Shown here one piece after another: positions 1-40,870 of a stretch of DNA of 64,000 nt. The stretch's first letter is position 1; each line of letters begins with the position of its first letter. Made by a program: the position numbers and the translations under genes. The stretch lies in the NCBI GenBank assembly GCA_038901695.1, contig JBCKPN010000001.1, forward strand, positions 1,105-65,104, written 5' to 3'. Source of the DNA: Usitatibacteraceae bacterium. GTDB taxonomy: Bacteria > Pseudomonadota > Gammaproteobacteria > Burkholderiales > Usitatibacteraceae. The notes under the pieces were generated by a model. The model had not been told where the DNA came from, did no database searches, and worked only from the letters and a program-made list of their open reading frames with translations.

Positions 1-557
1 ACGGCGATAAACCGACCATTGACGGCGATCACCGGTGTGCTGCTCGCTTTGTAGAGCCCTGGCAATTGACGACCGCGCTTGATTTTGGAATCCACGGAAA
101 ACGATTTTTCAACCGATTCATATTGCTTAGGATCGACGCCTTGTTTTTCCAGCCACTTCAGCAGCGTGGCCTTGTTGCCAAGCATCACGCGCTCGTTAAA
201 CACGGCGGCAAACAGTTTTTTGTGGAGGCTGTCGAGTTTGCCCATGGCTTCGAGCGTGTAAAAAATCGGAATGCTGTCGATGCCGCCGGAATTGAATCCG
301 GCCGGGGCGCGCTTGAACTTGACATCAGGCGGCAGCTTCGCGACCCACGCCTCGAGCGCCGGCTCAAGGTTCGCACAATGAATACACCCGTAGTCAAAGA
401 ATTCCATGACTTCGATGGTGCCGTCATTCGGGGTTGGCTGTGGTGGATTAATCGGTGTCACGTCCCTCGGCCCTTGCGCCGCCGCAAGGCTGACGAACGC
501 GACCGCCGCGAGGCTGGTCAACGTGCGAATGAAAGAACTGCGAGAGAGCGTTTGCAT
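1..557 (-). CDS. dsbA: thiol:disulfide interchange protein DsbA (3' end cut by window edge)
   Basis: It is absent from the ORF track because it runs off the window. Reverse-complement translation from the ATG (complement of 555-557) reads MQTLSRSSFIRTLTSLAAVAFVSLAAAQG... This gives a signal peptide and the thioredoxin-fold motif FFDYGCIHC. The + strand ORF 66..608 is its antisense shadow. Confidence 0.8.
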   Translation of the reverse strand, partial: MQTLSRSSFIRTLTSLAAVAFVSLAAAQGPRDVTPINPPQPTPNDGTIEVMEFFDYGCIHCANLEPALEAWVAKLPPDVKFKRAPAGFNSGGIDSIPIFYTLEAMGKLDSLHKKLFAAVFNERVMLGNKATLLKWLEKQGVDPKQYESVEKSFSVDSKIKRGRQLPGLYKASSTPVIAVNGRFIA

Positions 558-6951: not shown

Positions 6952-8391
6952 TTATCGCGGCAGTTCGCTGGTTCCCATCAGGAATTCGTCGACGGATCGC
7001 GCGCATTGGCGGCCCTCACGAATCGCCCACACGACCAGCGATTGGCCGCGCCGCATATCGCCTGCGGCAAACACCTTCGGGTTGGTCGTCTGATACGCCA
7101 TCGTGCCCTCAGTGGCGGCCTTGACGTTGTGACGCTGATCTTGCTCGACGCCCAACGCCGAAAACTGTTCGAGTAAACCAGCTTGAACGGGCGAGACAAA
7201 ACCCATCGCCAGCAGGATCAGATCGGCCTTCATTTCAAATTCGGAGCCCGGCACTTCTTGCATCTTGCCGTTCACCAACTCGACGCGGGATGCGACCAGT
7301 TTTTCGACTTTGCCGTTGCGACCAACGAAGCGCGTGGTTGCGACCGACCAATCACGTGCGCAGCCCTCCTCGTGTGACGACGAGGTACGCAACTTCACCG
7401 GCCAGTACGGCCACACTAGGGGCTTGTCTTCGTGTTCAGGCGGCATCGGCAGCAACTCGAACTGCACTACCGACGCGGCACCCTGCCGATTCGACGTGCC
7501 GACGCAATCGCTACCGGTGTCGCCGCCACCGATGACCACCACGTGTTTGCCGCGCGCACTGATTTGATTCGACACTTTGTCGCCTGCGACTATCTTGTTT
7601 TGCTGCGGCAAGAAATCCATCGCGAAATGCACGCCGTCGAGTTCGCGCCCCGGCACCGGCAATTCGCGCGGACATTCCGCGCCGCCGGCCAATATCACCG
7701 CATCAAGATCGGCCATCAGCGCCGAGGCCGGCGTGTCGACACCGATGTGTTGATTGACGCGAAACTGCACGCCCTCGGCCGTCATTTGTGTGATGCGTCG
7801 ATCGATGTGCGACTTTTCCATTTTGAAATCAGGAATGCCGTAACGCAACAGCCCGCCCACGCGATCACTTTTTTCAAACACGATCACGTCGTGGCCGACG
7901 CGTGCGAGTTGCTGCGCCGCGGCGAGCCCGGCCGGGCCGGAACCAACAATGGCGACGCGCTTGCCAGATTTGCGTTTGGGCGGCTGTGGAACAACCCAGC
8001 TCATCTCCCAACCCTTGTCGATGATGGCGTGTTCAATCGACTTGATGCCCACCGCATCGTCGTTGATGTTCAGGGTGCACGCCGCTTCGCAGGGCGCGGG
8101 ACACACGCGTCCGGTGAACTCCGGAAAGTTGTTGGTGGAATGCAGCGTGGTGAGCGCTTCTTGCCAATTCTGGCGAAACACCAGATCGTTGAAGTCGGGA
8201 ATGATGTTGTTGACCGGGCAGCCGGTCTGGCAAAACGGGATACCGCAATCCATGCAGCGTGCGCCTTCTTGCACCGCATCGCCGTCCGATAAATGCAGCA
8301 CAAATTCCTGGTAATTCTTGACGCGTTCGGCAACGGGCAGCGCCGGCTCGTTGAGGCGAGCAATTTCCTTGAACCCGGTGATTTTTCCCAT
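6952..8391 (-). CDS. gltD: glutamate synthase small subunit
   Basis: It has the N-terminal Fe-S cysteines CMDCGIPFC...GCP and [11 protein letters not shown], plus dinucleotide folds [14 protein letters not shown] and [13 protein letters not shown]. Confidence 0.93.
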
Positions 8392-21308: not shown

Positions 21309-23156
21309 TCACTCATTTGAATCTGTCCTTGGTGTGGATACGATTGAGAATTGTGGCTTCAGCGTAAGTTCGTCGGGCTGTCGCGCTGAGCCGTCGGGCA
21401 AGTGAGTCTGGCATTCCTGAAACACGCGGTGGGGACAGCGGCGACAGATGTCACTATCGAGCAGGCCGTAGGCTGCGCGCAGCGCCTCCCCTTTATGTGC
21501 GATGACCCGTTCTGCACCCAGTTCGGCGATTTGACCGCCGCGCTCCAGAAACTGTTGCACAACAGGCTGTACGCCGACCAACAGCAGCCCGCCCCCCAGC
21601 AATTTTCGCCGTCTCGCTTCGTGCACCAGTAACTCTGCGCCGGCAAGATCAATGAAACTGACCCCTCGCGCAAGCAGCAATACCCATTTGCGATTTGGTT
21701 GGGACTCGTCTACCTTGCGCAGGTGGTCGCGCACTTGTTCCACCGCGCCAAAGTAGATTGCGCCCGTCACTTTCAACATCGCCATTTGCGGACAAACGGG
21801 AATGTCCGGCGTCGCTGGTACCAGCTTGCGCGAAACGTTCGCCAGCTCGCCGGCTGGCGGCGCACGCTCCTCAATCGATGGTTGCGAGGTACGGTGCAAA
21901 TAGTAGACGAGGGACAGTACGATGCCCAGAAAAAGCCCCTTCTCAATGTCGACGAGTGTCCCGATGAACGTGACAACGAGGATAAATCGCTCTTGCGGCT
22001 GGCGCCTGAGTATCTGACCGATCTGTTTGAAGTCGATCAATGACCAAGCGACAATGAACAAGATCGCCGAGACGGACGCCACAGGCAAAAATGACACTAA
22101 TGGCGCGGCAAAGTATGCGATCGCCAGCAGGAACAGTGCAGACATCGCTGCTGCCAACGGGGTTTTGGCGCCGGATGCAAAATTCACGCCGCTACGATTG
22201 AACGAACCGCTCGCCGTATACGACGAAAAAAATCCGCCCGCGATATTGGAAAGTCCCTGCCCCACGAACTCTTGGTTGCTATCAATGCGCTGGCCTGAAT
22301 GGAGTGCAATCGAGCGCGAAATAGTGAGAGCTTCGGTCAGCGCCAGCAGCGCCACGATGAATGCCGGAAAGAGCGTCGACGTAATAGCCGTATAGGAAAA
22401 ATCCGGCAGTGAAAGAGGCGGGAACGTCGCCTGAATGGTGCCGATGGTTTCTATGCCGGCTTTGTCTGCGCCAATCAGCAGGTTAAACAATAACGCGAGT
22501 AGGCTGCCGGCTACCATGGCGACGATCATGTACGGCAGCTTTGGCGCGTAACGTTTCGCAAGCAAGCCACACGTTAGTGTCAGCACGCCGACCGAGATCA
22601 CCCATACGTGTGTTTCACCGATGTGGTCCAACGCAAACAAAATAGTCTGGTGAAAGTGCAGCCCGCGCGGCACGGCCAATCCTAAAACGTTTCCAATCTG
22701 GCCGGCGAAAATGAGGCAGGCAGCTCCCGCCGTGAAGCCGAGTACGACCGTATGTGAAATAAAGTTCATCAGCGTGCCCAGGCGCGCCAGACCCATTGCC
22801 AGTTGAATGATCCCCGCCAACAACGTGAGCGTGAGGACCAAGCCGATGTAATGGTCGCCTCCGGGTTCCGCCATGGTGCTGACCGACGTAAAGACAATGA
22901 TCGAAATCGCCGTGGTCGGACCGGAGACCATATGCCAGCTGGAACCCCACAATGCTGCCACCACCGCTGGCACCATGGCCGTATACAGGCCGTATGCCGG
23001 TGGCAGGCCGGCAATGCTGGCGAACGCAATCGCCTGCGGCAGCACGATAACGGCACCGGTGATGGCTGCGATCATATCCAGCCTGAACTTGTCTGGGGTG
23101 ACGTGCGGCCAAGCGAGAAACGGCAGCCACCGCGTTAGCGATCCCCGGCTAATCAT
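21309..23156 (-). CDS. SulP family anion transporter with C-terminal STAS domain
   Basis: The typical SulP N-terminus is present (DMIAAITGAVIVLPQAIAFASIAGLPPAYGLY). The STAS-like region reads ...LKVTGAIYFGAVEQV...LLLARGVSFIDLAGAELL. A Cys/His-containing tail follows. Confidence 0.85.
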   Translation of the reverse strand: MISRGSLTRWLPFLAWPHVTPDKFRLDMIAAITGAVIVLPQAIAFASIAGLPPAYGLYTAMVPAVVAALWGSSWHMVSGPTTAISIIVFTSVSTMAEPGGDHYIGLVLTLTLLAGIIQLAMGLARLGTLMNFISHTVVLGFTAGAACLIFAGQIGNVLGLAVPRGLHFHQTILFALDHIGETHVWVISVGVLTLTCGLLAKRYAPKLPYMIVAMVAGSLLALLFNLLIGADKAGIETIGTIQATFPPLSLPDFSYTAITSTLFPAFIVALLALTEALTISRSIALHSGQRIDSNQEFVGQGLSNIAGGFFSSYTASGSFNRSGVNFASGAKTPLAAAMSALFLLAIAYFAAPLVSFLPVASVSAILFIVAWSLIDFKQIGQILRRQPQERFILVVTFIGTLVDIEKGLFLGIVLSLVYYLHRTSQPSIEERAPPAGELANVSRKLVPATPDIPVCPQMAMLKVTGAIYFGAVEQVRDHLRKVDESQPNRKWVLLLARGVSFIDLAGAELLVHEARRRKLLGGGLLLVGVQPVVQQFLERGGQIAELGAERVIAHKGEALRAAYGLLDSDICRRCPHRVFQECQTHLPDGSARQPDELTLKPQFSIVSTPRTDSNE

Positions 23157-25318
23157 GCTGTCGCTGTAGGCGGTTTATCGGCCGGGTCGGTCAGCGGCAC
23201 ATTTGCAGGCGTCAGCAACTCGTGCCGGGCCTCGTTGCCCAACCATCGGTAAATCGCTTCTAGCGCCGTGTCCTCACTTGGGAAAATCTTATCCGCACCA
23301 ATCACGTCATAAAGGCCAGTGTTGTGCAGCACATCCAATACTTGTCTTTTTAAGCCGCAAAATACTAATGTGACCCCGCTCGCTTCCAACCTTTGCACCA
23401 GATGGCGAACGACCTCTTCACCGGTTGCGTCGATCTGATTGATGCCACCCGCCACAACCAGAAGATATTTGGTCTTCGGTTGCTCGGCAATCGCGCCCAA
23501 GATCGCGTCTTCAAAAAATGGGGCATTGGCAAAGTACAGCGAATCGTCAAACCGGAACGCGATCACGTTGTCGCTGGTTGGCAGATTCGGATAGATGAGC
23601 ACATCGCGCAACGTACCATCGGGGTGCCGACCAAGCAGTGCAACCCTAGGGCGCATAGTGCGATACAGATACAGCAGGATCGCAAGCGCGACACCCGCTA
23701 AAATACCTTTGTCGAGATGCGGAGCGGACACCAACGTGACGAAGAAAGTGGCCCCCGCCACCACGCCGTCCGACCGCCTTGCCCGCCACGCGTGCAACAT
23801 GGCTGGAAGTGAAACTAGGCTCGTGATCGCCAGCAGAATGATCACGGCGAGCGTCGCTTTAGGAAGGTGGTACAAATAAGGCGTGAAGAACAATAGCGCG
23901 ATGACGACAAACAGCCCGTTGAACACCATCGCAAATCCGGTCTTGGCTCCCGCATCCAGATTAATGGCCGAGCCAGTGAATGAACCTGATACCGGATACG
24001 ATTGAAAAAAAGATCCACTGAGATTGGCCATGCCTTGGCCGATCAGTTCCTGATTCGGATTGATGCGCTGTTTGGTACGTGCCGCAAGCGCTTTGGCCAT
24101 CGCCATCGACTCCATCAGCGCCACCAGCGCGATGACCATGGCGACTGAGAGGAGCGAAAGTAGGCCATCTAACGTGATGCTGGGTGGTCGAAACGAAGGC
24201 AGGCCGGGTGAAATTTTCCCGACTACCTCGCCGCCACCTACTAGATGCAGCTGATCGCCCTCGATTTTCCGGATGCGCCATGGGCGAGCGTCCGTAATTA
24301 TCCCTTCGGGTACCCGACCTGCAACGTATAAAATGTCGTCGTCCGGCTGACTCACCATGTAGAAAAGCGTCTGGCCAATGGCTTGCAAGCGCTGCTTGTT
24401 TTCGGTCGTGAGGTCGGCAGCATCAAGTTGACCTAGATGCAACTGGTGGCGTTGCTCGGCGGCATCTCTAGCGTTGGTCGACTCTAGTTTGCGTACGGTG
24501 GCTGCTTTCGCCGGTAATTGCGTACCAAGCTCTTGTATCCGCTTGTCCGCTTCCGCGTAGGCAGAAACGGTGCTGCGTGTCTCGTTGTCAGCAATGCGGG
24601 CCGTCTGGCTGCTGGCCGTCCGTTCGAAGTTGAATGCGTAACTCGCGACGATGGTGACGGCGACCGCGATCAGCACGCTTAGATTGGCGAGCCATGGTAT
24701 TTTTCTGAGAACCAAAATCATCGTTAGTGCAAACAACGACATCAGTACGGTCGGCCAGTGGGCCTGCGTCAAAACGATGCGCATCTCCCAGATGTCGCTC
24801 AAAAAAGAGTCGCTGCGACCTTTCGGGATGCCCAGCAGCACATCAATTTGAGACAGGGCGATGATGATGGCGGCGGCGTTTACAAAACCCAGCAAGACCG
24901 GATGCGAAACAAAGTTGATGATGGCGCCGAGTTTTAGCGTGCCCAGTGCGAACTGAATCAAACCGACCATCAGCGTCAGCAGCAACGCAAGTTCAACGTA
25001 CTCGCGTGAAAACGGCGCCGCCAACGGCGTCAGCGCCGCGGCAGTCATTATCGAAATAATCGCGACGGGACCGGTAGCCAGTTGCCGCGAGGATCCCCAC
25101 AGTGCCCCGAAGATGGCGGGAACAAATGCGGCATACAGACCAAAGTGCACTGGCATGCCGGCCAAATGCGCATAGGCCATCGCTTTTGGAACCAGCACGA
25201 GGGCACCCGTAAAACCTGCAATCAGGTCGCTGCGCAGCACGATCTGCGTTACCGGAAACCAAGATAAAAACGGCAACAGTCGCAGCGCCCATTGCCAGAT
25301 TGGCGAGTGAATTTTCAT
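23153..25318 (-). CDS. SulP family anion transporter with STAS domain and a roughly 145-aa internal insertion
   Basis: The SulP core (DLIAGFTGALVLVPKAMAYAHLAGMPVHFGLY) and a STAS domain are present. Its stop overlaps the downstream SulP start by 4 nt. The insertion lies at about 24185-24625. The start is placed at MKIHSP (25318). Confidence 0.85.
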   Translation of the reverse strand: MKIHSPIWQWALRLLPFLSWFPVTQIVLRSDLIAGFTGALVLVPKAMAYAHLAGMPVHFGLYAAFVPAIFGALWGSSRQLATGPVAIISIMTAAALTPLAAPFSREYVELALLLTLMVGLIQFALGTLKLGAIINFVSHPVLLGFVNAAAIIIALSQIDVLLGIPKGRSDSFLSDIWEMRIVLTQAHWPTVLMSLFALTMILVLRKIPWLANLSVLIAVAVTIVASYAFNFERTASSQTARIADNETRSTVSAYAEADKRIQELGTQLPAKAATVRKLESTNARDAAEQRHQLHLGQLDAADLTTENKQRLQAIGQTLFYMVSQPDDDILYVAGRVPEGIITDARPWRIRKIEGDQLHLVGGGEVVGKISPGLPSFRPPSITLDGLLSLLSVAMVIALVALMESMAMAKALAARTKQRINPNQELIGQGMANLSGSFFQSYPVSGSFTGSAINLDAGAKTGFAMVFNGLFVVIALLFFTPYLYHLPKATLAVIILLAITSLVSLPAMLHAWRARRSDGVVAGATFFVTLVSAPHLDKGILAGVALAILLYLYRTMRPRVALLGRHPDGTLRDVLIYPNLPTSDNVIAFRFDDSLYFANAPFFEDAILGAIAEQPKTKYLLVVAGGINQIDATGEEVVRHLVQRLEASGVTLVFCGLKRQVLDVLHNTGLYDVIGADKIFPSEDTALEAIYRWLGNEARHELLTPANVPLTDPADKPPTATA

Positions 25319-25735
25319 TTTGCCGTCCGAATCCGACCCGCAGACCGCGTAGATCTTCCGCATCGCGGATGCACCCCGTGCCCGTTACGCTTAAGAAACG
25401 CCGACGGCAGATGTCGACTGGCGTCCATGGTGGATCTCAACGCGCGAGACTCAACATTCCGGAGATTGCGCCAATTGGTGCTTTGTTGATGCTGGGCCCA
25501 CACTGGTTTTTCTCACTCACGAAATGGTCTGGTAGTAGAGGTTTTGCGGATGATTGGCTTGCGCGAAAAAAACCAGCGCTCCGCAATCAGCTAGCTGAGT
25601 CTGTGTTGTGACCGGGTCAGCGATCCAGATTGCGTGGATTTTCGACCCTGTTAATTCCAGCGTCTGCACTACGATGCGGGATAGTGCTGTACAGTGAAGT
25701 ATATCCGCCTTACAAACGCTGCATAGAGGGAATCC

Positions 25736-25936: not shown

Positions 25937-26319
25937 TCACCCTCGGATCCATCACACCCGGTCTTTCGCTCACCGGTCTTGACCCCACTGGTATTGGGAG
26001 CGTAATTGCCGTTGTGCCAATTGCCGACGGTGCGGTGCAAGTCCTTTACAAAACGCCCGACGGCGCACTCAAGGAACGTCTGCTCAATCGGGGAGATGAA
26101 CCCAACATCTCTATTGCCACCACCGAGCGTCCCTGGTCTTTCGATGGCGATGGCGAGGCGTTCAAGCTCACCGTCGAGGCCAAGCGCATTGATCTCGCCT
26201 TTCTGTTCGACCCGATGATGGACTGGGCTTCATGTCACCCCTCGAAGCCCGTTAGGCATATAGTCTACAAAAGGCGGCCTGAGTTGCAAAACCGTGTCCA
26301 GAGCGAGCCGGTACATTAA
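25933..26319 (+). pseudogene. N-terminal fragment of a large SNF2/DEAD-like helicase (truncated)
   Basis: ...RPWSFDGDGEAFKLTVEAKRIDLAFLFDP matches, from memory, the conserved N-terminal region of large helicases found in restriction/defence loci. The similarity stops near 26215 and no helicase motifs follow. Confidence 0.45.
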
Positions 26320-26633
26320 GTGGTGGTGTTGAATGGCATCGGACAAATTTCGGCTTTAATTACTTGCACTTGCAATCCTGAATTCACGGGAAAAAAAGGA
26401 GACTTATGAGCGAGCAAAAACCCATTACCAAAGTTCCTGACGGCCATACGCGTTTTTTTACAACGCGTCAGATGGCACCAAACGAAAAGGGGTTTGTTGG
26501 TTACGAAACCGTCTGGAAACCACTCCAGAAGGAAGTTGAATACAAGACGCCGAAAAAGCCGTAGGCGTAATGCCGTAGCATCGATGAGCCGGATCGCGCG
26601 GCTAGGATGCGGACCCATAAAGGGAATTGCCTC
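26316..26633 (+). repeat. inverted-repeat module, copy 1 (leader + 52-aa ORF + conserved stem-loop)
   Basis: It aligns with the reverse complement of 34074-34392, with about 25 differences in about 318 bp by manual alignment. Confidence 0.9.
26406..26564 (+). CDS. small basic protein, 52 aa, unknown function (copy 1)
   Basis: The product is MSEQKPITKVPDGHTRFFTTRQMAPNEKGFVGYETVWKPLQKEVEYKTPKKP. A strong SD (AAAGGAG) lies 5 nt upstream. A paralog lies at 34144-34302, with 3 synonymous and 4 non-synonymous codon differences. Confidence 0.6.
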   Translation: MSEQKPITKVPDGHTRFFTTRQMAPNEKGFVGYETVWKPLQKEVEYKTPKKP

Positions 26634-26800
26634 CTGAAAATACCGGCTGCGCGGGGCTATGGCTGCGTCGTGCGTTGCTCGTGACCTCGCCTAACTACTA
26701 ACTACATGGTTATGTCTCGGTCCCTGCGCTCCGTGCTCCTTGCCCTCGCGCCGCTCGCGACGGTTTTTCAGCGGTTTCCTGAAGCCTCCGCGTTGTCAAT

Positions 26801-26831
26801 AAAAAAGCCGCTTTAACAGGCGGCTTTTTTT
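26801..26831. terminator. bidirectional rho-independent terminator (small ORF / sat convergent)
   Basis: aaaaaagccgctttaacaggcggcttttttt forms the stem-loop with flanking A and T runs. Confidence 0.8.
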
Positions 26832-26865
26832 ATGGGGCAGGCAGGTTGTTAAACCCGCAAGGTTG

Positions 26866-28083
26866 TCAGCGTGCGGAATGGCCGGAGAGCTTGACCTCGA
26901 CCTTGTCTTTGGCATCGATGCTGGCGTAGTACTCACGGAGAATTTCCAGTACCTCAGGCCGCGAGAATTCCGCGGGCACCGCATCGCCATCGGAGAGCCA
27001 TTTGCGCAGTTTGGTCCCTGACACCAGCAGGCGATCTTTTTCATCGTGCGGGCAGGTGCGCGCGGAGGCCATGCCGCCGCACTGGTAACACCAGAAGGTC
27101 CAGTCGATTTTCAGCGGTTTGGTTTCCAGGGCACCGGCTGGTATCTCATCAAAAATGTGATGCGCATCGAAGGGGCCGTAATAGCTGCCGACACCGGCAT
27201 GGTCGCGGCCAACGATCTGGTGCGAGCAGCCGTAATTCTGGCGGAACAGTGCATGCAGCAGTGCTTCGCGCGGCCCGGCATAACGCATGTCCAGCGGATA
27301 GCCGGATTGCACGACGGTGTTGGGTGCGAAATACTTGTCGATCAGCACTGCGATGGATTGGGTGCGTACGTCGGCAGGGATGTCGCCGGCCTTCAGGTTG
27401 CCGAGCAGGGAGTGCACCAGTACGCCGTCACAGACTTCGATGGCGACCTTGGCCAGATATTCGTGCGAGCGGTGCATCGGATTGCGCGTCTGGAAGGCGG
27501 CGACCGTGGTCCAGCCATTGGCTTCGAACGCCGCGCGAGTCTGCGCCGGGGTCATGTACATTGCGCCATATTTTTCCGGGAATCCGCCTTGTGACAGCAC
27601 TTTTACCGGACCGGCAAGGTTGATGTCGCTCTGTGACATCACCATTTGGACGCCAGGATGCTCAAGATCGGTAGTCTTGAACACCATCGCACATTCCTGC
27701 GTCTTGTCGATGGTGTATTTCTCCGTGACCTTCATGGTGGCGAGTATTTCGCCGGTGTCGGGATTGGTGAGCGCAATTTCAGCGTTGATTTTCAGCGCGT
27801 CAGCATGTGCCTTGGTTGCAGATAGTGTGATTGGTATTGGCCAGAATAAGTCATTGGCCAGCGTGCAGTGGTCACAGACACTGCGCCAGTCGGCCTCAGT
27901 CATAAAGCCGTCCAAAGGCGTGAATCCACCGATGCCCAACATCAGCAGATCACCTTTTTCTCGGGAAGTGACCGGAATCTTCGCGAATGATTGTGCTCGC
28001 TTTAGTTCTTCTCGCCGCGGTGCGTCATTCAATAACAGCGGCTTTAAAGAGCCACCCCCATGTGGTTTTACCAGTTTTGTCAT
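26866..28083 (-). CDS. sat: sulfate adenylyltransferase (ATP sulfurylase), homo-oligomeric type
   Basis: The signatures [12 protein letters not shown] and GRDHAGVG are present and the length is 405 aa. Confidence 0.93.
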
Positions 28084-28286
28084 CGCAGTTTTTGTAACCT
28101 GTTTTGTTTAGTAAGGGCCACGACTTTGTGCGTTTATAGCTTTTGAGAAGGCAGGTATTGGCGCCGGATGAATTTTGACCACCTGTGCCGGTTCAATATT
28201 GATCAGGGGCTTTTGCTGACGTGAATCCAGTCAGCTATGAATAACTATATCGTTTCTGTGATCGTAGTGACTCCTTTTTTCATCGT

Positions 28287-33324: not shown

Positions 33325-33936
33325 TCACTTCTTCGCCGCAATCTCCTGCAACTTCGTCGGCTGAATGATGTGCCCGTCCAGCCCCGCCTCCTTGACTGTG
33401 CCGCCGTAGGCCACGGTCATGAGCTGCGAGTAGTAGAGCACCGGCATGTTGAGCTTGGTGCCCTGCTTGCGGTTGATCTCGGACTGGTAAATCTCGACAT
33501 TGGCTTGGCACAGTGGACAGGGTGTGACAATCATCTTGGCGCCGTGATCGTAGGCCGACTCCATGATGTCACGAATCTGCTTCTGGCTCTTTTCCGGTTC
33601 TGAAAAGGCCAGCGCCCCGCCACAGCAGGTCACCTTCTGGTCATAGGCTGCAATCACCTCGCCGCCCACGGTTTCAACCAGCTTGTCGAGATAGACCGGA
33701 TTCTCGAACGACTCGCCATCAATGCTAAATGGCCGGTTGGTCTGGCAGCCCACGTAGCCGGCAAACTTGATCCCTTCGAGCGATTTGACCACCGGCTTTT
33801 TCAGTTCGTCGTAACCAAAATCGGCGTGGTTCAAAATCGGGTAACACTTTTTCGGGTGGCCATCGGTTGAGTCATAGGCAAACCATCCAAAATTCACATT
33901 GTCCGTGTTACCCAAAAACGTTACTTTTTGAACCAC
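33325..33936 (-). CDS. HdrB-like CCG-domain protein, possibly 5'-truncated
   Basis: It has a single CCG-type cysteine motif set (GCQTNRP...TCCGG...TPCPLCQ). The start is GTG, 4 nt after a terminator. HdrB-type proteins normally carry two CCG domains. Confidence 0.55.
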   Translation of the reverse strand: MVQKVTFLGNTDNVNFGWFAYDSTDGHPKKCYPILNHADFGYDELKKPVVKSLEGIKFAGYVGCQTNRPFSIDGESFENPVYLDKLVETVGGEVIAAYDQKVTCCGGALAFSEPEKSQKQIRDIMESAYDHGAKMIVTPCPLCQANVEIYQSEINRKQGTKLNMPVLYYSQLMTVAYGGTVKEAGLDGHIIQPTKLQEIAAKK

Positions 33937-33939
33937 GCC

Positions 33940-33969
33940 AAAAAAGCCGCCTGTAAAGGCGGCTTTTTT
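33940..33969 (-). terminator. rho-independent terminator after small ORF copy 2
   Basis: aaaaaagccgcctgtaaaggcggctttttt forms the stem-loop with flanking A and T runs. Confidence 0.8.
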
Positions 33970-34073
33970 GTCAGCGTCCGAAGTCCGGCATCAGTCGATG
34001 ATGTGGTAAACCGGTGCCTTCTCCATATCCCACTTGAGAACTTGTGTGCGGTGCCGCCAATGGTATCGCCGCT

Positions 34074-34392
34074 GAGGCGATTCCCTTTATGGACTCGCAT
34101 CCTAGCCGCGCGATCCGGCTCATCGATGCTACGGGTATTACGCCTACGGCTTTTTCGGCGTCTTGTATTCGACTTCCTTCTGGAACGGTTTCCAGACGGT
34201 TTCGTAACCAAAAAACCCCTTTTCGTTTGGCGCCATCTGACGCGTTGTAAAAAAACGCGTGAGGCCGTCAGGAACTTTGGTGGGGGGTTTTTGCTCGCTC
34301 ATAAATCACCTTTTTTTGCCGTGAAGTCAGGATTGTAAGTGCAAGTAACTAAATCCGAAATTTGTCCGGTGCCATTCAAAACCACCACTTAA
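34074..34392 (-). repeat. inverted-repeat module, copy 2
   Basis: It is the reverse-complement match to 26316-26633. Confidence 0.9.
34144..34302 (-). CDS. small basic protein, 52 aa, unknown function (copy 2)
   Basis: The product is MSEQKPPTKVPDGLTRFFTTRQMAPNEKGFFGYETVWKPFQKEVEYKTPKKP. An SD (AAAGGTGA) lies upstream. Confidence 0.6.
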   Translation of the reverse strand: MSEQKPPTKVPDGLTRFFTTRQMAPNEKGFFGYETVWKPFQKEVEYKTPKKP

Positions 34393-34898
34393 ACAGGCCT
34401 CATGAGTGACGGGTCGATATCCGCGCCCGCAATGATCGCCTCGCCCACTCTGGTCTCTTCATCAGTTGCATCGCGCACGGTCAGTATCTCGAGTGTAAAG
34501 ACGACCGCTCTGCCGCAAAGCGGATTGTTGCCATCGACAGTCAGTTTCTCGTCGTCCATCTGCGTCACGATAAAGCTGCGAGGCTGGCCCTTGTCGTTTT
34601 CCATGAGGATGGAGCCGCCGATTTGCCGATACGCCTCGGGGACATTCTCAATGTGATCGGTAAAAACCAACGACTCGTCTCTGGGGCCGAAGATCTGATT
34701 GCCATCGATTGGCACTTCGATCACGTCGCCAACGCACTTGCCCTCCAGCTCCTGATGGACGGAAGGCGCCAGAATTTCATTGTACCCATGGACATAGCCC
34801 AACGGGAAATCGACCCCGGAGAGAACATGCCCCGATTTCTTGTCGGTCACCTTGTAGGTTAATTCGACGAACTTGCCGTCTTGGATGGTTTCACTCAT
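34389..34898 (-). CDS. FKBP-type peptidyl-prolyl cis-trans isomerase (SlyD/FkpB-like)
   Basis: It starts MSETIQDGKFVELTYKVTDKKSGHVLS... and contains ...NNPLCGRAVVFTLEILTVRDAT, the typical FKBP/IF-domain pattern. Confidence 0.75.
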   Translation of the reverse strand: MSETIQDGKFVELTYKVTDKKSGHVLSGVDFPLGYVHGYNEILAPSVHQELEGKCVGDVIEVPIDGNQIFGPRDESLVFTDHIENVPEAYRQIGGSILMENDKGQPRSFIVTQMDDEKLTVDGNNPLCGRAVVFTLEILTVRDATDEETRVGEAIIAGADIDPSLMRPV

Positions 34899-34918
34899 GT
34901 CGAATCCGAACGAACTGC

Positions 34919-35326
34919 TCAAAAGATGGATGCACCAAAAATCTTGACCTCTTCATTTTCATAGCCGAGGACAAGTCTGCCAAGCCATTCGCCTTGCTTT
35001 TTAGTGCTCCGCTGCCGGTAAAGAACCGTCACATGCTCGCCCCGGCGGATAATGCCGAGCGAGTCGACGTCATCAGACAGATTTCTCGCCAGTTCACTAT
35101 TCGCGAACTGATGGCCCGCCACAACATGATTCAAGGCAAGCGCCATGGGAGTGGAAAAATTCTTTACAAATTCTCCGTATTGGCCTTCGTTCGAATGTTT
35201 GACGAGGTCGCGCCACAGGGGATCGGCGATGGCCAGAATCTCTTCATCGGTTTTTCCAATAATGTTCACGCGAGGGTCTTGGCTACCGGAAGAGACCCGC
35301 TCTATAGGGCTCACAACACTCGACAT
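34919..35326 (-). CDS. hypothetical protein, 135 aa, downstream of aprA
   Basis: The ORF starts at MSSVVSPIERV, 26 nt after the aprA stop. The longer track ORF (to 35701) overlaps aprA and is not credible. I recognise no family. Confidence 0.55.
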   Translation of the reverse strand: MSSVVSPIERVSSGSQDPRVNIIGKTDEEILAIADPLWRDLVKHSNEGQYGEFVKNFSTPMALALNHVVAGHQFANSELARNLSDDVDSLGIIRRGEHVTVLYRQRSTKKQGEWLGRLVLGYENEEVKIFGASIF

Positions 35327-35352
35327 GCTGGTCTCTTCTGCCTGGGATATTG

Positions 35353-37221
35353 CTACTCGCCATCCGTAACCAAGTGATACAAAGGCGCCTTCTCCATGGT
35401 GTATTCGCCGGTTTCCGGATCGCGACGCGAAACTGTCAGCACGTGCCAACTTTCGTCGTCCAGCTTCATGAAGTCGCCTCGGTAGTAGTAACCCGGCCAA
35501 CGGGTCTCCTTGCGGAACAGCGTGTGCTGCGTAACGCACTCTGCAGCGCGATGACGGTGCATCAATTCCCACGCACGCAGCAACTCGTGGATATCCGCTG
35601 CGGCCAAGCTCTGAAGGTCTTCCTCCATGATCTCGAGCTTCTTGAGACCGATATTCAGGAGCTTCTCGTTGGTCATGTAGTTGACGGTCACTCCGCCGCA
35701 ATACTCGTCCATCAGTTTCTGTAGACGGTCTAGGCCCTGCTTGGGATTGATGTAGTGCGGGTTGACATCGCCCGCCACGATCGCATTGCGGTACATCTTG
35801 TAATGCTCCAGTGGCTTGTAGATCTCTTTCTTGCGACGGTTGATCTGCTCATCGGATACGACGATGCCTTCGGCCTTTCCGTCGTCGATGTATTTGCAGG
35901 CAGCCTTCGCGGCGAGACGACCTTCGGTGAACGAGCCGGCGGAGAATTTGTGCGGCGTGCCGCCGACTGCGTCACCGGCGCCGAACAGACCATCGATCGT
36001 CGTCATGCGGTTGTAACCCCAGAAATACTCGGGAGGGGAAAGGTCCTCGGGACCCGAGCACCAAGCACCAGAGCCAGTCGCGTGCGAGCCCATGACGTAG
36101 GGCTCGGATGTGGTCAGCTCGGGATTCTCGTGCTTGGGATCCACGTCGGTGGCGGCCCACAGAACCGCCTGGCCGACGGTCATGCCGAGGAAGTTTTCCC
36201 AACCGACCTCTTCCAAATGAGGATCCTGGAAGGCTTGCATGGTCACCATGTGAATGGGACCGCGGCCGGCGTTGACTTCGCTGATAATTGCATGGTTGCG
36301 CAAGCAGGTCGGGATTGGCCGATGGGTCAAGTGCGACGCTTCCGGATCGAGATATTCCTTGCCAACCATTTTCTGTAGTTCGGGGAACCATTTGGATTCG
36401 TACTCTTCGCCCAGGCAGTTCTGCGTATAGGTCTTCAGGTGCAGGAAGTAGGCGCCAACCGGGCCATAACCGTCCTTGAAACGTGCCAGCACGATGCGAT
36501 TTTCCATCTGCGTCATTTTGGCGCCAGCGTCGATCATGAGCCCATAGGCAGACGCGGACGACCAGGGCGCATACCAAGTGCGGCCGGCACCTTCGCCCAC
36601 TGAACGCGGTTTAAAGATGTTGGAGGCGCCGCCCGCAGCGCAGATCACGGTCTTGGATTTGAAGACGTGGTAGTTGCCTGTGCGGACGTTGAAGCCAACG
36701 GCACCGGCAATCCGGTTCTCCTTGCTGTCGTCCATCAGCAGGTGGGTGACGCAGATGCGGTTGAAGATCTTGTCCGCCGATTTTTTGGCGGCCTCGGCCA
36801 CGATGGGCTTGTAGGACTCGCCGTGAATCATGATCTGCCATCGCCCTTCACGCAGATAGCGCCCGGTTTTCGGGTCCTTCATGATGGGCAGGCCCCAATC
36901 TTCGAACTGATGCACCGTGGAGTCAACGTGACGGGCCATATCGAACAGCAGGTCTTCCCGCAGCATCCCCATCAGGTCGATGCGGGCGTAGCGGACATGA
37001 TCCTCCGGCTTATTTTCGCCCCAGCGGGTGCCCATATAGCAGTTGATAGCGTACAGCCCCTGGGCGACCGCACCGGAGCGATCAATATTGGCCTTCTCGG
37101 CAATGACAATATTCTTGTCTTGACCCCAGAATCGGGCCTCCCATGCGGCACCAGTGCCGCCAAGGCCTCCACCGACGACTAGAACATCAATGCCTTCTTC
37201 AACGATCGTTTCGTAAGCCAT
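35353..37221 (-). CDS. aprA: adenylylsulfate (APS) reductase alpha subunit
   Basis: The FAD fold VLVVGGGLGGTGAA is present. The length is 622 aa with AprA-typical sequence throughout, and it sits immediately after aprB. Confidence 0.93.
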   Translation of the reverse strand: MAYETIVEEGIDVLVVGGGLGGTGAAWEARFWGQDKNIVIAEKANIDRSGAVAQGLYAINCYMGTRWGENKPEDHVRYARIDLMGMLREDLLFDMARHVDSTVHQFEDWGLPIMKDPKTGRYLREGRWQIMIHGESYKPIVAEAAKKSADKIFNRICVTHLLMDDSKENRIAGAVGFNVRTGNYHVFKSKTVICAAGGASNIFKPRSVGEGAGRTWYAPWSSASAYGLMIDAGAKMTQMENRIVLARFKDGYGPVGAYFLHLKTYTQNCLGEEYESKWFPELQKMVGKEYLDPEASHLTHRPIPTCLRNHAIISEVNAGRGPIHMVTMQAFQDPHLEEVGWENFLGMTVGQAVLWAATDVDPKHENPELTTSEPYVMGSHATGSGAWCSGPEDLSPPEYFWGYNRMTTIDGLFGAGDAVGGTPHKFSAGSFTEGRLAAKAACKYIDDGKAEGIVVSDEQINRRKKEIYKPLEHYKMYRNAIVAGDVNPHYINPKQGLDRLQKLMDEYCGGVTVNYMTNEKLLNIGLKKLEIMEEDLQSLAAADIHELLRAWELMHRHRAAECVTQHTLFRKETRWPGYYYRGDFMKLDDESWHVLTVSRRDPETGEYTMEKAPLYHLVTDGE

Positions 37222-37700
37222 CAGTAGTACACCCCTGTCTTTAGCGTGAGACCGTTGGACTTAAGCGTATGTAAACCGCCATCATCCATGCGGATATATT
37301 TCGGCTCGCTGTACAACAACTCGCTGTCGCGCATTTCCTGGCTGGGCCCGGAAACATCCGCGAGCTTAGGGATCGCCGTCCCCCAGGGCTTGGTGGTAAT
37401 GGGCGACAGGAAGTTCTTTTCCGTACCATTCCGGAATTTGATCTTCCAGGCGATCGTGCCTTTCGCTTCGTCTCGGTCGACACGAACGCTGTGACCGAGC
37501 GGGGCAAAGTCGGCATATCCGCGCACATCGATCGCATTCTGCGGACAAGCCTTGACGCATGAGTAGCACTCCCAGCACATGCTAGGCTCGATGTTGTAGG
37601 CACGGCGATAGGTCTTATCGATGTGCATGATGTCCGAGGGGCAGATGTCGACGCAATGTCCGCATCCGTCGCACTTTGTCATATAAACAAAGGTAGGCAT
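37221..37700 (-). CDS. aprB: adenylylsulfate reductase beta subunit
   Basis: It has two [4Fe-4S] motifs, CDGCGHCVDICP and CWECYSCVKACP. Its stop overlaps the aprA start by 1 nt. Confidence 0.93.
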   Translation of the reverse strand: MPTFVYMTKCDGCGHCVDICPSDIMHIDKTYRRAYNIEPSMCWECYSCVKACPQNAIDVRGYADFAPLGHSVRVDRDEAKGTIAWKIKFRNGTEKNFLSPITTKPWGTAIPKLADVSGPSQEMRDSELLYSEPKYIRMDDGGLHTLKSNGLTLKTGVYY

Positions 37701-37744
37701 AAGTCGGTTCCTCGATCTGTTCTTATAGAATTTGCGGGCTGTTT

Positions 37745-38584
37745 TTAATAGTGACGGGGCGCTTCGCGCTTGATGCCAAGTCCCATGTCCGCCGGAGCGT
37801 CTCGCAACAGTTCCATAGAGTGTCTTTTCTGTTGTTCGGGATCGTCACGGGTCAGCGTCGGCAAATTATCGACCGTACCATTTGCCTTGGATACCCTTTT
37901 CTCGAAGGCCGCTGCGGGCTTGAAGAACATGTGCGCAAACTTGGACCAGGGCACCGATCCGAACAACACCGTGGTGGCGATGATGTACAGGCCGAAGAAC
38001 ACGTCGGCGCCGGCGTTGCCCTTCGCTTGCAGGAAAGCCCAGATCAGCCCCAGCGTGACGCTGGCCAGCAGCGAAAGGATGAACAGATCCGCGCGCATTA
38101 GCCGAAACGGCGATTTGCCCTCGGCGGCGACATCGACGCGGATGAAGAACCAGAACCAGTATCCGCCGACGCAGATCATCAGCCCGCCGATCCACCACAG
38201 TTGCGGCAGTATGGTGGGCGTAGCCGTCGCGGTCGTCGGATAGCAGAAAATCATGAGTGCTGTGGTGACCACATAGATCACGAACCCATACATAGTCAGC
38301 AGATGGGCAATCCGGCGCCGTGCGTTGCAGAACTCCCCGGACAGCAACACATCGACCAGACCAGTCTTGACGGCAATCGACACCATTTCGCCGCCATCGA
38401 CCTCTTTCACGCCTTTGCTTCTGGACTTGCGCCAGTTTTCGAAAAAATACTTGGCACTGCCCTTGTGGATAGTGTCGAACAGAGTCCCTGCCGCAACCAG
38501 CAGGATCATGACAATGACAAAAGTCTGCATGACTGCGGACGGTACGGACGCCGAAAGTTCGGCAAACGGATTAACGTTAATCAT
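37745..38584 (-). CDS. aprM: AprM-like membrane anchor (NarI/HdrE/DsrM-related)
   Basis: It is a polytopic membrane protein directly upstream of aprBA. It has a conserved His-containing helix (ARRRIAHLLTMYGF). The start is placed at MINVNPF. Confidence 0.6.
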   Translation of the reverse strand: MINVNPFAELSASVPSAVMQTFVIVMILLVAAGTLFDTIHKGSAKYFFENWRKSRSKGVKEVDGGEMVSIAVKTGLVDVLLSGEFCNARRRIAHLLTMYGFVIYVVTTALMIFCYPTTATATPTILPQLWWIGGLMICVGGYWFWFFIRVDVAAEGKSPFRLMRADLFILSLLASVTLGLIWAFLQAKGNAGADVFFGLYIIATTVLFGSVPWSKFAHMFFKPAAAFEKRVSKANGTVDNLPTLTRDDPEQQKRHSMELLRDAPADMGLGIKREAPRHY

Positions 38585-38741
38585 CAAACCCCCATTTTTT
38601 ACTGCGGTAATTTTAACCCAGATAGGGCACATCTAAAAGTTCAGTGCATTTTTGATAAATTCTGGTACACGGAGATTAAGCCTGTGCGGCCATAGAAAAA
38701 ACTTGGTGCGGCATCGGGTACAATGCGCGCCGAGGTGTCGA

Positions 38742-39266
38742 TTGAAAATATGCATTGTTTCTGACAGTCACGATCATCGTGAACCCTTTGCCATGGCCGT
38801 CGCCGAAGCCAAAGGGCTCGGTGCACAAGCCGTACTGCATTGCGGCGATTTAATAGCACCGTCCACATTGCATGCCGTCGTCGGACTGGGGCTGCCGATC
38901 CACTTGGTTCATGGCAACAATACGGGTGATCTGTACTTCCTGTCCAAATGGGCGCACGAACCCAAGAACCGCCTGCACTACTACGGCCAAGACGGTTCGC
39001 TGGTGCTGGCTGAGCGGCGAATCTTCATCGTGCACTACCCGCATTACGCAAAAGCCATGGCGCTCACCGGCGACTATGACCTAGTCTGCAACGGTCATGA
39101 GCACCGCGCCGTCATTGAGCGAATCCGGAATATCAAGGGCGGCGATACGTTGCGCATCGATCCCGGCACCGTCGCCGGCGTGAGCGCGCCCGCAACCTAC
39201 GTATTCGGCGACCTGCAGACCCTAGAATTCGAGATCCGGCCGGTTCCCACGCCAATGAAAAATTAA
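38742..39266 (+). CDS. metallophosphoesterase (YfcE/MJ0936 family)
   Basis: The motifs KICIVSDSHD, HCGDL and VHGNNTGD ... NGHEH are present. The start is uncertain, either TTG at 38742 or ATG at 38652. Confidence 0.7.
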   Translation: MKICIVSDSHDHREPFAMAVAEAKGLGAQAVLHCGDLIAPSTLHAVVGLGLPIHLVHGNNTGDLYFLSKWAHEPKNRLHYYGQDGSLVLAERRIFIVHYPHYAKAMALTGDYDLVCNGHEHRAVIERIRNIKGGDTLRIDPGTVAGVSAPATYVFGDLQTLEFEIRPVPTPMKN

Positions 39267-39364
39267 TAATTATTAAATTAAAACAATTAGTTATGATGTA
39301 ACCCGCGCATCGAGGGTACATGCTCTACCATGTTCCGCTGAACGAGTAACTTCCAAGTCTTGTC

Positions 39365-40870
39365 TGTCAACGCAAAGCAGTAATGTCCGCTGTTGCACTG
39401 TGATGCAGCGGATAAGGCATCGCAGTTTGGTTTAGTGTTGCTGTTGCTGGCAGGAGCGCGTCGTGAAAGGCGCAGGGCGTTAGCCCGACGCCTGAAACGA
39501 CGCTTTCCTGCCAGCGGCGTCCCTTTTTGGAGCCGGGTCGGGGTCTTGCCAGCGCGCCCACGGATGTTCGGCTGCAGGCTTGTGGCCGCGGCGCTGGCGG
39601 CTGAGGTCGTCAAGTCTCACGTCCAGATACTTGCGCCCGATGACGATCGCCGCTTTGGGCTGCTTTTCCACCACCGTGTAGGGCAATACCGCACCCTGTC
39701 GACGCACCTCTATGCGCCCGTCAAAGTGCCAGTGAATCTGCACCTTCATCCCGCGCAGCCCGCGCCCACTCCCCGATGGGTTCAATTGCAGCAGTTGACC
39801 TTCAACGCTACACGTCAAATTCTTCGACAGTCGGCGATCTTCCTGAATCGACAAAATCGCCGTCAACGTCTCTACGCTGTCGGTATAGGCGACATGTCCA
39901 TTCTCGGGTTCACGCGGCACGCAACCAAAGCGACCATTGTATTTTGCGGTGTAGTCACGAAGCATCGCATTGCCCTGCTCAGGCGTGTTGATGCCCATCA
40001 GACGCAATTCTTTGACGAGCCGATCCTGTAGCGTCTGATTGACGCGCTCGACGCGCCCCTTGGCCTGCGGCGAGTTGGCGCAGATCAATTCAATGCCCAG
40101 TGCCGATACCGCCCGGCCAAATTGCGTTTCACTGTCCACGTCCTTCGCGTTGACCCGAAATACGCTGTGCTTGTCGCTGTAGAGCGCCATCGGCAACCGT
40201 GCGTGTCGATGTAGCGGCTCAGCGCTTGCATGTAGCTCAACGTGCTTTCCGAGGGAACAAAGGCGAGGTGCATCAGTTGCCCGGTGGCGTCGTCGATGAA
40301 GACAAGGAGGGTACAGGCGGGTTGTGCTTCACCAAACCAGTGGTGCGGTGATCCGTCGATCTGACTCAGTTCGCCGTAGCGTGCCCGTCGCTGACGCTGC
40401 GGATGCAGCACCACTTTTTTGCCTCGCTTGGCCGTCCACAGTCCCTCTAGGATCATGAGTTGCCGCACGCTTTCTATCGAGACATTGATCGCATGTTGTT
40501 CGCCCAGCTTCTCCTGTACCAGCGTGGGACCAAAGCCTTGGTAGTGTTGCGCCACCAAGCCGCTCACGCTGCGCCTGAGCTCCTCGGCCATGCGGTTTCT
40601 GGCGGGCAGCCCTTTGCGTTTGCTGACCAGCCCGCCAATGCCTTCTGTGCCGTAGCGTTTCCGGATTCGCCGCAGCTGTCTCTCGGTCACCCCCAGCCGC
40701 CTCGCGCCCTCCGCGTGGCTCACCGTTCGATCCTCTACCCGCAGCACGATTTCTAACCGCTTTGCTTCCTTTGCCCCCACCTTCACCTCCATCGCAGCAT
40801 CCCCGCTTGATTTGCCAAATGCGGACATTACTGCTTTGGAGAAACCGGACATTACTGCTTTGCGTTGACA
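39365..40870 (-). mobile_element. insertion sequence with perfect 25-bp terminal inverted repeats
   Basis: tgtcaacgcaaagcagtaatgtccg (39365-39389) is the exact reverse complement of 40846-40870. A second, internal copy of most of the repeat lies at 40822-40838. Confidence 0.85.
39480..40792 (-). pseudogene. DDE (rve-type) transposase split by a frameshift
   Basis: The N-terminal ORF (40085-40792) carries an HTH (RLGVTERQLRRIRKRYGTEGIGGLVSKRKGLPARN) and the start of the catalytic core. It ends ...YIDTHG, then runs out of frame. The second ORF (39480-40196) resumes with PMALYSDKHSVFRVN...ANSPQAKGRVER. The junction is at about 40190-40200. Confidence 0.75.

Follow-up and report, generated by a model that had tools for sequence, protein, structure and literature searches.

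The closest described counterpart of the locus considered here is the sat-aprMBA locus of Allochromatium vinosum (Alvin_1118-1121), which encodes an oxidative adenosine 5'-phosphosulfate (APS) reductase of the AprM type (PMC3779200). A second solution, the QmoABC-linked APS reductase, is found in sulfate reducers, green sulfur bacteria and some sulfur oxidisers (PMC3333476); it shares the catalytic AprBA and has a membrane module that couples the enzyme to quinones, and AprM resembles the membrane part of QmoC. Here, we describe a gene of 52 codons, labelled Z in what follows, that accompanies the AprM-type enzyme and is present in two copies in a 64,000-nucleotide (nt) stretch of DNA (the window) from a member of the Usitatibacteraceae (assembly GCA_038901695.1, contig JBCKPN010000001.1, positions 1,105 to 65,104). 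The window has the same core genes as A. vinosum in the same order (aprM, aprB, aprA, with sat nearby), followed by two further genes, X and Y, and by Z. The account published for A. vinosum goes no further than aprA and mentions none of these three (PMC3779200).

Taken as a whole, the evidence makes it reasonably probable that Z represents a real gene family, that its product is an accessory partner of the AprM-type APS reductase and that one of the two copies in the window, Z1, is a duplicate displaced with the help of an insertion sequence (IS). Homologues of Z stand beside such loci in Allochromatium warmingii, A. humboldtianum and A. palmeri and in Thiocystis, Thiorhodococcus and Thioalkalivibrio. 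In A. vinosum itself, neither a search by name nor one with a single degenerate DNA pattern, the only two approaches tried, turned up Z. The gene numbered next after aprA in that species, Alvin_1122, is listed only as a 'conserved hypothetical protein' in one transcriptome table, where it groups with dsr genes, and, judged by position, is probably X.

Two inverted copies of a 52-codon gene

A repeat search of the 64-kb window finds one pair of inverted arms of 259 nt with 92% identity (26316-26574 and 34134-34392) and a second pair of 61 nt with 93% identity (26573-26633 and 34074-34134), so that overall some 320 nt (26316-26633 and 34074-34392) are 92-93% complementary, with differences at about 25 positions and with 7.4 kb between them. 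Each arm carries a copy of Z: Z1 at 26406-26564 on the forward strand and Z2 at 34144-34302 on the reverse strand. Both open reading frames (ORFs) are intact, begin with ATG and are preceded by a Shine-Dalgarno sequence (AGGAG and AGGTG, respectively). A reading of the window made from its letters alone (the original prediction) had described these two frames and their products, and both were reproduced exactly on recomputation. The neighbours it had named, sat for copy 1 and the apr operon for copy 2, are also as described: Z1 faces sat, away from the string aprM-aprB-aprA-X-Y, and Z2 ends that string, directly after Y.

Z1 and Z2 match each other with E-values of 1e-33 and 1e-29. They diverge by 8% (synonymous divergence, dS, 0.18; ratio of non-synonymous to synonymous divergence, dN/dS, 0.23), the ten nucleotide changes falling in seven codons, of which three are changed synonymously and four non-synonymously (I7P, H14L, V31F and L40F, from Z1 to Z2). 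In the frame of the antisense ORF at 26316-26618 the same seven codon changes comprise one that is synonymous and six that are not; both sets of numbers had been given in the original prediction. The phenylalanine at position 31 is unique to Z2 (the 359 distinct family sequences have V in 343, I in 14, L in 1 and F in 1), which hints either at relaxed constraint on the operon copy, given a second copy, or at a private variant. The source genome is a metagenome-assembled genome (MAG) of 2.1 Mb in 176 contigs, 70% complete, and holds these two copies of Z only. The exact Z1 protein is present on 28 contigs.

Z as a conserved small protein family

A word-indexed search returned 446 clusters at the 90% identity level, nearly all of 52-53 amino acids and 77-92% identical, whose named members are without exception called 'hypothetical protein'. 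When 1.84 billion representatives were searched exhaustively with a profile, only 67 matched, the genuine ones all being small proteins, and no tie to any larger family emerged. Two scans of contigs, with one genome per species, yielded more than 583 and more than 423 confirmed Z loci, from more than 1000 species genomes. Homologues are 52-55 amino acids long, and among their carriers are soil MAGs of the Burkholderiales type (Usitatibacteraceae, Casimicrobiaceae), Alphaproteobacteria and Magnetococcales as well as cultured sulfur oxidisers, for example Allochromatium warmingii, A. humboldtianum, A. palmeri, Thiocystis violacea, Thiorhodococcus, Thioalkalivibrio and Thiohalophilus. RefSeq likewise labels them hypothetical proteins (TK90_0068 and ThidrDRAFT_1501 are examples), and full-text literature searches found no description of the protein. 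Longer matches, considered as natural fusions that might serve as Rosetta-stone clues, proved to be frameshifted or mis-started artefacts and were set aside.

Variation within the family follows codon positions, with entropies of 0.28, 0.27 and 0.89 at first, second and third positions, respectively, third positions thus being about three times more variable. Among 71 distinct 52-codon Z genes the mean dN is 0.097 and the mean dS 0.756, a ratio of 0.13. Since the frame is kept by hundreds of homologues, its presence in two copies in the window is not a matter of chance. The invariant or nearly invariant residues are V10, P11, G13, T20, R21, Q22, K28, G29, V31, G32, Y33, W37, Q41, K42, E43, Y46, T48, P49, K50 and the terminal P52. 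Z1 and Z2 align end to end with the family motif, VP(D/E)G...T(R/K)Q...KG(F/Y)(V/I)GY..(I/V)W...QKE..Y.TPK.P, which ends at the C-terminus, and Z2 departs from it only at V31F.

It might be argued instead that the duplicated unit is a non-coding RNA or cis element, or that an antisense ORF is the gene, and that the 52-codon frame is incidental. Longer antisense ORFs do exist, and near relatives retain the nucleotide sequence of both the leader and the 3' flank of Z. The codon-wise variation and the dN/dS of 0.13 contradict this reading already, however, as do the six of seven changed codons that are non-synonymous in the antisense frame, the lack of any Rfam match or consensus structure (see below) and the comparison between gamma- and betaproteobacteria, where the protein is 52-60% identical and the flanking DNA cannot be aligned; we give it next to no credence. 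Together, these results argue that Z is a genuine gene for a small, strongly conserved protein that as yet has no name, and that it is the sense frame that codes. The preference of the original prediction for the short sense ORF is thereby borne out by a much larger set of homologues, in which length and frame are retained.

The Z protein is small (6.1 kDa), hydrophilic and mildly basic (isoelectric point 9.6; grand average of hydropathy, GRAVY, -1.1), lacks cysteine and is rich in proline and lysine. The original prediction did not recognise it, and it is indeed named in no library searched: there is no match in Pfam at an E-value of 0.01 or in NCBIfam at 1, and the best match in a profile search of PDB sequences (E-value 1.9) is not significant. 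An AlphaFold model built from 73 sequences has a mean confidence (pLDDT) of 69 and consists of two short strands in an otherwise mostly extended chain, for which Foldseek finds no fold match (best E-value 3.7). Judged by this model, Z resembles a peptide that becomes structured on binding to a partner.

Z accompanies the AprM-type APS reductase

Synteny was examined by searching the window's own proteins against all fetched Z loci with tblastn. In every locus with enough flanking sequence, aprM-aprB-aprA-X-Y adjoins Z. The relative orientation varies: in beta- and alphaproteobacteria, Z comes sixth in a co-directional series, closely spaced and often followed by a convergent or co-directional sat, whereas in the Chromatiaceae and many other gammaproteobacteria it lies on the opposite strand, convergent with Y at a distance of 100-2000 bp, and in others again it is co-directional. 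One genome has the order aprA-X-Z-Y in place of X-Y-Z (locus L177, 5516-6759). An alphaproteobacterial MAG, MFD02923.bin.2.34, has two complete apr operons on two contigs (L086 and L087), each with its own Z and then a co-directional sat.

The presence and absence of Z were scored in 399 genomes of the same class, drawn evenly and each at least 90% complete. Z was found in 42, AprM in 57 and AprB in 112 of these; strong AprM homologues adjoin aprB in all 57. AprM is present in 41 of the 42 carriers of Z, and Z is absent from each of the approximately 55 sampled genomes that have AprB but not AprM and are presumably of the Qmo type. The Z family is thus confined to genomes with an AprM-type dissimilatory APS reductase, its gene almost always standing beside aprM-aprB-aprA-X-Y, and Z belongs to the AprM solution only.

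Possible roles of Z

The restriction of Z to AprM genomes, its adjacency to the operon irrespective of strand, the conservation of the whole peptide including its C-terminus and the lack of an autonomous fold suggest a protein-protein role in the AprM/AprBA system. Z may therefore be an accessory partner of the APS reductase, possibly a small soluble subunit, an adaptor or an assembly or regulatory factor, and could act together with the NTF2-like X and the SlyD-like chaperone Y on AprBA itself or on the docking of AprBA to AprM. In a more specific version, a tentative idea that we consider to be on the doubtful side, the oxidative enzyme would have a third soluble component present in stoichiometric amounts: Z, as an adaptor of 6 kDa, would together with X fasten AprBA to the haem-containing AprM and so take over the function that QmoAB has in the other lineage.

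Two better-known small or helper proteins offer points of comparison. CydX is a small accessory protein of the cytochrome bd oxidase, encoded at the end of the operon and consisting of a single transmembrane helix. Like Z it is very short, was long overlooked, comes last in its operon and is conserved with its enzyme; there is, however, no sequence relation, and Z differs in being hydrophilic, basic, rich in proline and lysine and predicted to be mostly extended. SlyD-type chaperones of the FKBP family (NCBIfam NF008008) take part in the maturation of metalloenzymes. Z resembles neither SlyD nor the known partners of SlyD, but its neighbour Y is SlyD-type, although below the family cut-off, and by analogy this suggests a maturation role for the X-Y-Z group.

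A narrower form of the latter idea would make Z a client or co-factor of Y, that is, a proline-rich peptide needed only for the maturation of AprBA (insertion of flavin adenine dinucleotide and Fe-S clusters, or folding) and absent from the finished enzyme. Y is immediately upstream of Z in most loci, several prolines are invariant (P11, P49, P52 and others) and the predicted structure of Z is largely unfolded. We nevertheless think this explanation unlikely, given that Y persists without Z in three genomes inspected, that the order is X-Z-Y in one genome and that Z is on the other strand in many.

Rather less improbable, if still a minority view, is that Z regulates the expression or activity of sat and apr, for example as a nucleic acid-binding protein or as an inhibitor or activator of AprBA or Sat under some conditions. 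Its basic character (isoelectric point 9.6) and its frequent position next to sat would fit such a role, as would the strong predicted promoter and long 5' untranslated region (UTR) of its own that it has in many gammaproteobacteria, the hairpin GGCCGCGCG...CGCGCGGCC that recurs after Z in 19 of 75 gammaproteobacterial loci and the fact that 16 of 57 AprM-positive genomes do without it. On the other hand, neither a fold nor a motif for binding DNA or RNA was found with Pfam, NCBIfam, the PDB profile search or Foldseek, Z is co-directional with and tightly spaced after the structural genes in beta- and alphaproteobacteria, and extreme conservation over the whole length, to the very C-terminus, better suits a fixed protein interface.

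Several observations count against a partnership of Z with the APS reductase, or limit it. Most of the 16 AprM-positive genomes without Z are small, and in four such genomes that were inspected X is kept in all four and Y in three, with no Z within about 5 kb. As there are AprM lineages that lack it, Z is not an obligatory subunit and is helpful rather than indispensable. The role proposed for it is drawn from gene context, and the separate strong predicted promoter in the Chromatiaceae suits a regulator as well as it does a subunit.

Leader, promoters and 3' elements

The leader of copy 1 (26316-26405, forward strand) is the equivalent of the intergenic region between Y and Z, which as the leader of copy 2 occupies 34303-34392 on the reverse strand, with the Y stop codon TAA at its upstream end. 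The two differ at 9 of 90 positions, matching the earlier estimate of about nine. The original prediction had further suggested that a promoter may travel with the ORF, but this is not borne out: the leader is an ordinary Y-Z spacer, which aligns with those of 28 related loci (consensus ...GTGTnGAATGGCATCGGACAAATTTCGGCTTTGGTTACTTGCACTTGCAATCCTGACTTCACGGnAAAAAAGGTGACTTATG), and no sigma-70 promoter lying wholly within 26316-26405 (-35 and -10 hexamers at a spacing of 16-18 nt) was found, a consensus scan likewise reporting none. Our own scoring of hexamers gave best values of 6 of 12 for Z1 and 8 of 12 for Z2 within 150 nt. The best candidate in relatives has a -35 hexamer, ATGAGA, in the last codons of Y and, after an 18-nt spacer, a TAGAAT block in the leader; this combination scores 9 of 12 in 11 of 81 loci, compared with 4 of 81 shuffled sequences. 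In the window, the block is weaker (TTGAAT), and copy 1 is without the -35 half. The leader therefore carries at most a -10-like block, with the putative -35 element in the 3' end of Y. Readings of the leader as a sigma-54 promoter or as one of the extracytoplasmic function type were examined by eye and dropped, and an upstream mini-ORF (MASDKFRL...) was rejected, as it contains stops or lacks an ATG in many relatives.

Elsewhere in the family the picture is different. The monocistronic Z of the Chromatiaceae has a predicted sigma-70 promoter, TTGACA-17-GATAGT, about 60 nt before the ATG, and another gammaproteobacterial group has a predicted promoter TGTTATTGATATAAT with a 5' UTR of about 100 nt. 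Promoter scores of at least 10 of 12 occur upstream of Z in 15 of 74 gammaproteobacterial loci and in 2 of 74 shuffled sequences. A hairpin (z-score below -2) follows the Z stop codon in 59% of the gammaproteobacterial loci, some of these being textbook terminators. One such hairpin, GGCCGCGCG(A)...(T)CGCGCGGCC, lies 5-25 nt past the stop codon of Z in distant gammaproteobacterial genera (loci L107, L112, L127, L131, L145, L148, L163, L171, L175, L179 and others). The stems of terminators are usually not conserved in sequence across genera; the 3' half of this one, TCGCGCGGC, is also present in the window's own 3' element.

That element, a conserved untranslated stretch after Z (26565-26633, forward strand, in copy 1; 34074-34143, reverse strand, in copy 2), contains the stem-loop at 26578-26610 to which the original prediction had drawn attention. 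Its identity in the two copies is confirmed, and the sequence is kept in about ten near relatives, but a functional element is not supported. For the proposed stems, 77% of cells in the alignment pair, but covariation is below the shuffled mean, and folding is no better than that of shuffled sequences (z-scores of the minimum free energy, MFE, -0.9 for copy 1 and +0.35 for copy 2), the MFE fold of copy 1 skipping the proposed stem. No T run follows the stem-loop, which thus lacks the form of an intrinsic terminator (a stable G+C-rich hairpin before a U tract) and is absent from the terminator scan; Rfam gives no match at an E-value of 1 or below in either repeat arm; and RNAalifold finds 3 and 5 weak pairs, respectively, in the 3' element and the leader and no consensus structure. 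An ORF that starts in the stem-loop (MSRIARLGC...; 26584-26637, and 33971-34123 on the reverse strand) was also considered and rejected, being open for 17-53 codons only. Its frame, (M/V)S(R/W)IAR(L/P/F)GCEP(I/T)KGIASAAIAWFTVC..., can also be read downstream of Z in loci L027, L035 and L054, where it ends at a different point each time; in L024 and L032 it is broken. What is seen here is probably just conserved nucleotide sequence rather than a gene.

Clear terminators are found further downstream. Between Z1 and sat lies a predicted bidirectional intrinsic terminator (26801-26830; AAAAAAGCCGC...GCGGCTTTTTT; MFE z-score -4.3), and downstream of Z2 another (33940-33969; MFE z-score -5.6) that is 87-93% alike to it. 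Both are A6-GCCGC...GCGGC-T6 hairpins and have the features required of intrinsic terminators.

Origin of the displaced copy

Abutting the leader of copy 1 is a remnant (26222-26315, forward strand) that comprises the 3' end of an rve-type (IS3/IS481-like) transposase gene and the terminus of the IS (...GGTACA). The remnant is 96% identical in nucleotides to positions 4983-5080 of contig L186, where, as in L187, it forms the end of a longer ORF; in L186 this ORF reads ...RMDHGTQYTS...ERFNRTLKEQ...LGFMSPIEARQAYSLQKAA up to its stop codon and matches Pfam rve_3 and rve_2. The window retains this frame only as ...GLGFMSPLEAR and a stop. The right terminus of the IS, ...GGTACA, next to TTAA, stands directly before TTAAGTGG, the point that corresponds to the stop codon of Y in copy 2. 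The repeat thus starts at the Y stop codon because the IS ends exactly there in copy 1.

These features suggest that an rve-type IS inserted exactly at the stop codon of Y, between Y and the leader of Z, and that an IS-linked rearrangement then separated the unit of leader, Z, 3' UTR and terminator, together with sat, from the operon. Z1 would on this account be a displaced duplicate of a unit that normally faces sat, and the former position of the IS between Y and the leader would account both for the start of the repeat at the Y stop and for its inclusion of the leader in full. As in IS-mediated displacement by DDE (rve) elements generally, copy 1 abuts the 3' end of a transposase gene and a terminus ending in CA, and the module recurs in several contexts beside IS fragments. 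It differs from a full rve-type IS in that the window holds a stump of only about 94 bp, with no intact element, left end or target duplication definable; the left end is missing from every copy seen.

The module at 26232-26700 recurs, 97% identical, in at least four contexts in other assemblies, with left boundaries of the shared sequence that correspond to 26222-26236. It follows a longer rve fragment in L186 and L187 and lies beside Ank and Rieske genes in L188-L194. In the latter contigs, a transposase-like HTH_33 gene is inserted at a TA, at a position equivalent to 26700 in the window; this insertion and the rve stump together single the module out as a hot spot of IS insertion. A close relative, genome G007, has a Z1-type copy only, between a gene designated o267 and sat; in this genome sat is directly downstream of Y, with 16 nt of the leader left after the Y stop codon. 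Also in this relative, 575 bp of unique sequence lie between o267 and the Z1 module (L024, 1076-1650), within which short stretches are 77-85% similar to 40823-40870 and 39365-39391 of the window and may represent a dispersed small repeat.

Four further loci (L040, L027, L032 and L035) align with the window from 34065 or 34131 to 38572 at 89-93% identity, and a convergent sat after Z is a common arrangement in relatives. By this comparison, Z2 is the presumptive ancestral operon copy, and Z1 with sat looks like the detached original right-hand end of the locus. All other genomes with Z in the draw of 399 have a single match. No pseudogene remnants of Y, X or aprA were found upstream of Z1, and a single inversion between the arms was rejected as an explanation, as it does not reproduce the arrangements in relatives (G007, L040).

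Displaced copies of Z are not confined to this lineage. Contig L014 (JGI Botbay15) has at 8001-8159 an exact copy of Z protein P0096 of another lineage; it lies away from apr genes, next to an Exo_endo_phos gene and ORFs of 63 and 91 amino acids, and so represents displacement in a second lineage. P0096 also ends the apr operon in L015 and L016. A short metagenome contig (L067) has two copies of Z, at 1073 and 4334, in the order X-Z...SulP...Y-Z.

The timing of the duplication is less straightforward. Between the window and the close relative (L024 and L104, aligned over 26234-28153 and 34376-39267), the Z1-sat segment is 98.7% identical, the apr operon 95.7% and the Usp/o267 region about 96%, which suggests that the Z1-sat module was exchanged recently between lineages. 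The duplicate is either old or imported, because Z1 and Z2 differ by 8% while the two genomes differ by only 4% over apr and 1.3% over Z1-sat. This tells to some extent against the account given above, in that copy 1 may have been imported rather than duplicated in place; the exact order of the IS-mediated events, moreover, cannot be reconstructed, and the presence of both copies on one contig depends on the assembly of a MAG that is 70% complete.

The last point raises the question of whether the contig is chimeric, joining two strains of an organism with one Z only. The MAG is fragmented (176 contigs) as well as incomplete, a close relative has one copy of Z, the divergence of Z1 and Z2 is about that between related species, and a short metagenome contig with two copies of Z, L189 (29-187, forward strand; 310-468, reverse strand), is a near-perfect palindrome and likely an assembler artefact. 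Against this, both copies in the window are flanked on both sides by unique sequence within a single contig. An independent assembly, L185, reproduces the whole context of Z1 (SulP-SulP...Z1 facing sat), which argues against an artefact at this locus, and the context from the operon to Z2 is reproduced in L040, L027 and L032, so that neither context needs a chimera. We therefore regard an assembly artefact as very improbable, and the duplication is best seen as an apparent IS-associated displacement.

Neighbouring genes

Convergent with Z1 is sat (26866-28083, reverse strand; Pfam ATP-sulfurylase, E-value 2e-87, and PUA_2), which encodes ATP sulfurylase. Upstream of Z1 are two SulP/STAS transporter genes (21309-25363, reverse strand), followed by a gene-poor kilobase. 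The genes upstream of Z2, all on the reverse strand, are aprM (37745-38632; a membrane anchor like the membrane part of QmoC, with partial matches to NCBIfam qmoC/TcuB), aprB (37221-37700; Pfam APS-reductase_C, 7e-33), aprA (35353-37221; Pfam FAD_binding_2 and Succ_DH_flav_C), X (34919-35323; about 134 amino acids, no family match) and Y (34389-34922; a SlyD-like FKBP-type peptidyl-prolyl isomerase, matching NCBIfam NF008008 at 8e-18 and NF011676 at 2e-10, both below cut-off). X and Y are syntenic in all loci.

Between the arms are genes for a rhodanese, a YeiH-type membrane protein and a USP-domain protein, ORFs of no assigned function and a protein that has half of an HdrB-like CCG domain. 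The match of the CCG-domain ORF (33325-33936, reverse strand) to HdrB/SdhE-type proteins is limited to their C-terminal half (profile positions 126-290), and the ORF starts 4 nt past the Z2 terminator; related locus L040 lacks the sequence corresponding to 33351-34130. The ORF looks like a truncated gene carried in by rearrangement.

Concluding remarks

What is new here is a family, widespread but undescribed, whose members accompany the oxidative APS reductase. The duplicate is of lesser interest in itself; it shows that the unit survives as an intact gene once detached from the operon, and the ten nucleotide differences between Z1 and Z2 provide natural sequence tags for telling which copy is expressed.

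The sat-aprMBA pathway, from sulfite via APS to sulfate, is a standard marker of sulfur oxidisers in soils, sediments, symbioses and oxygen-minimum zones, and the coupling of AprBA to the membrane through AprM has so far only been postulated. Across alpha-, beta- and gammaproteobacteria, Z retains an identity of 50-90%, and it is in no family library, annotation usually missing it or leaving it as 'hypothetical'. It is a concrete, testable missing piece of this system, whether it acts as subunit, adaptor or control element, and, should it prove to be an adaptor, it would explain how AprM-type electron transfer from sulfite oxidation to the quinone pool can proceed without an Hdr-like subunit.

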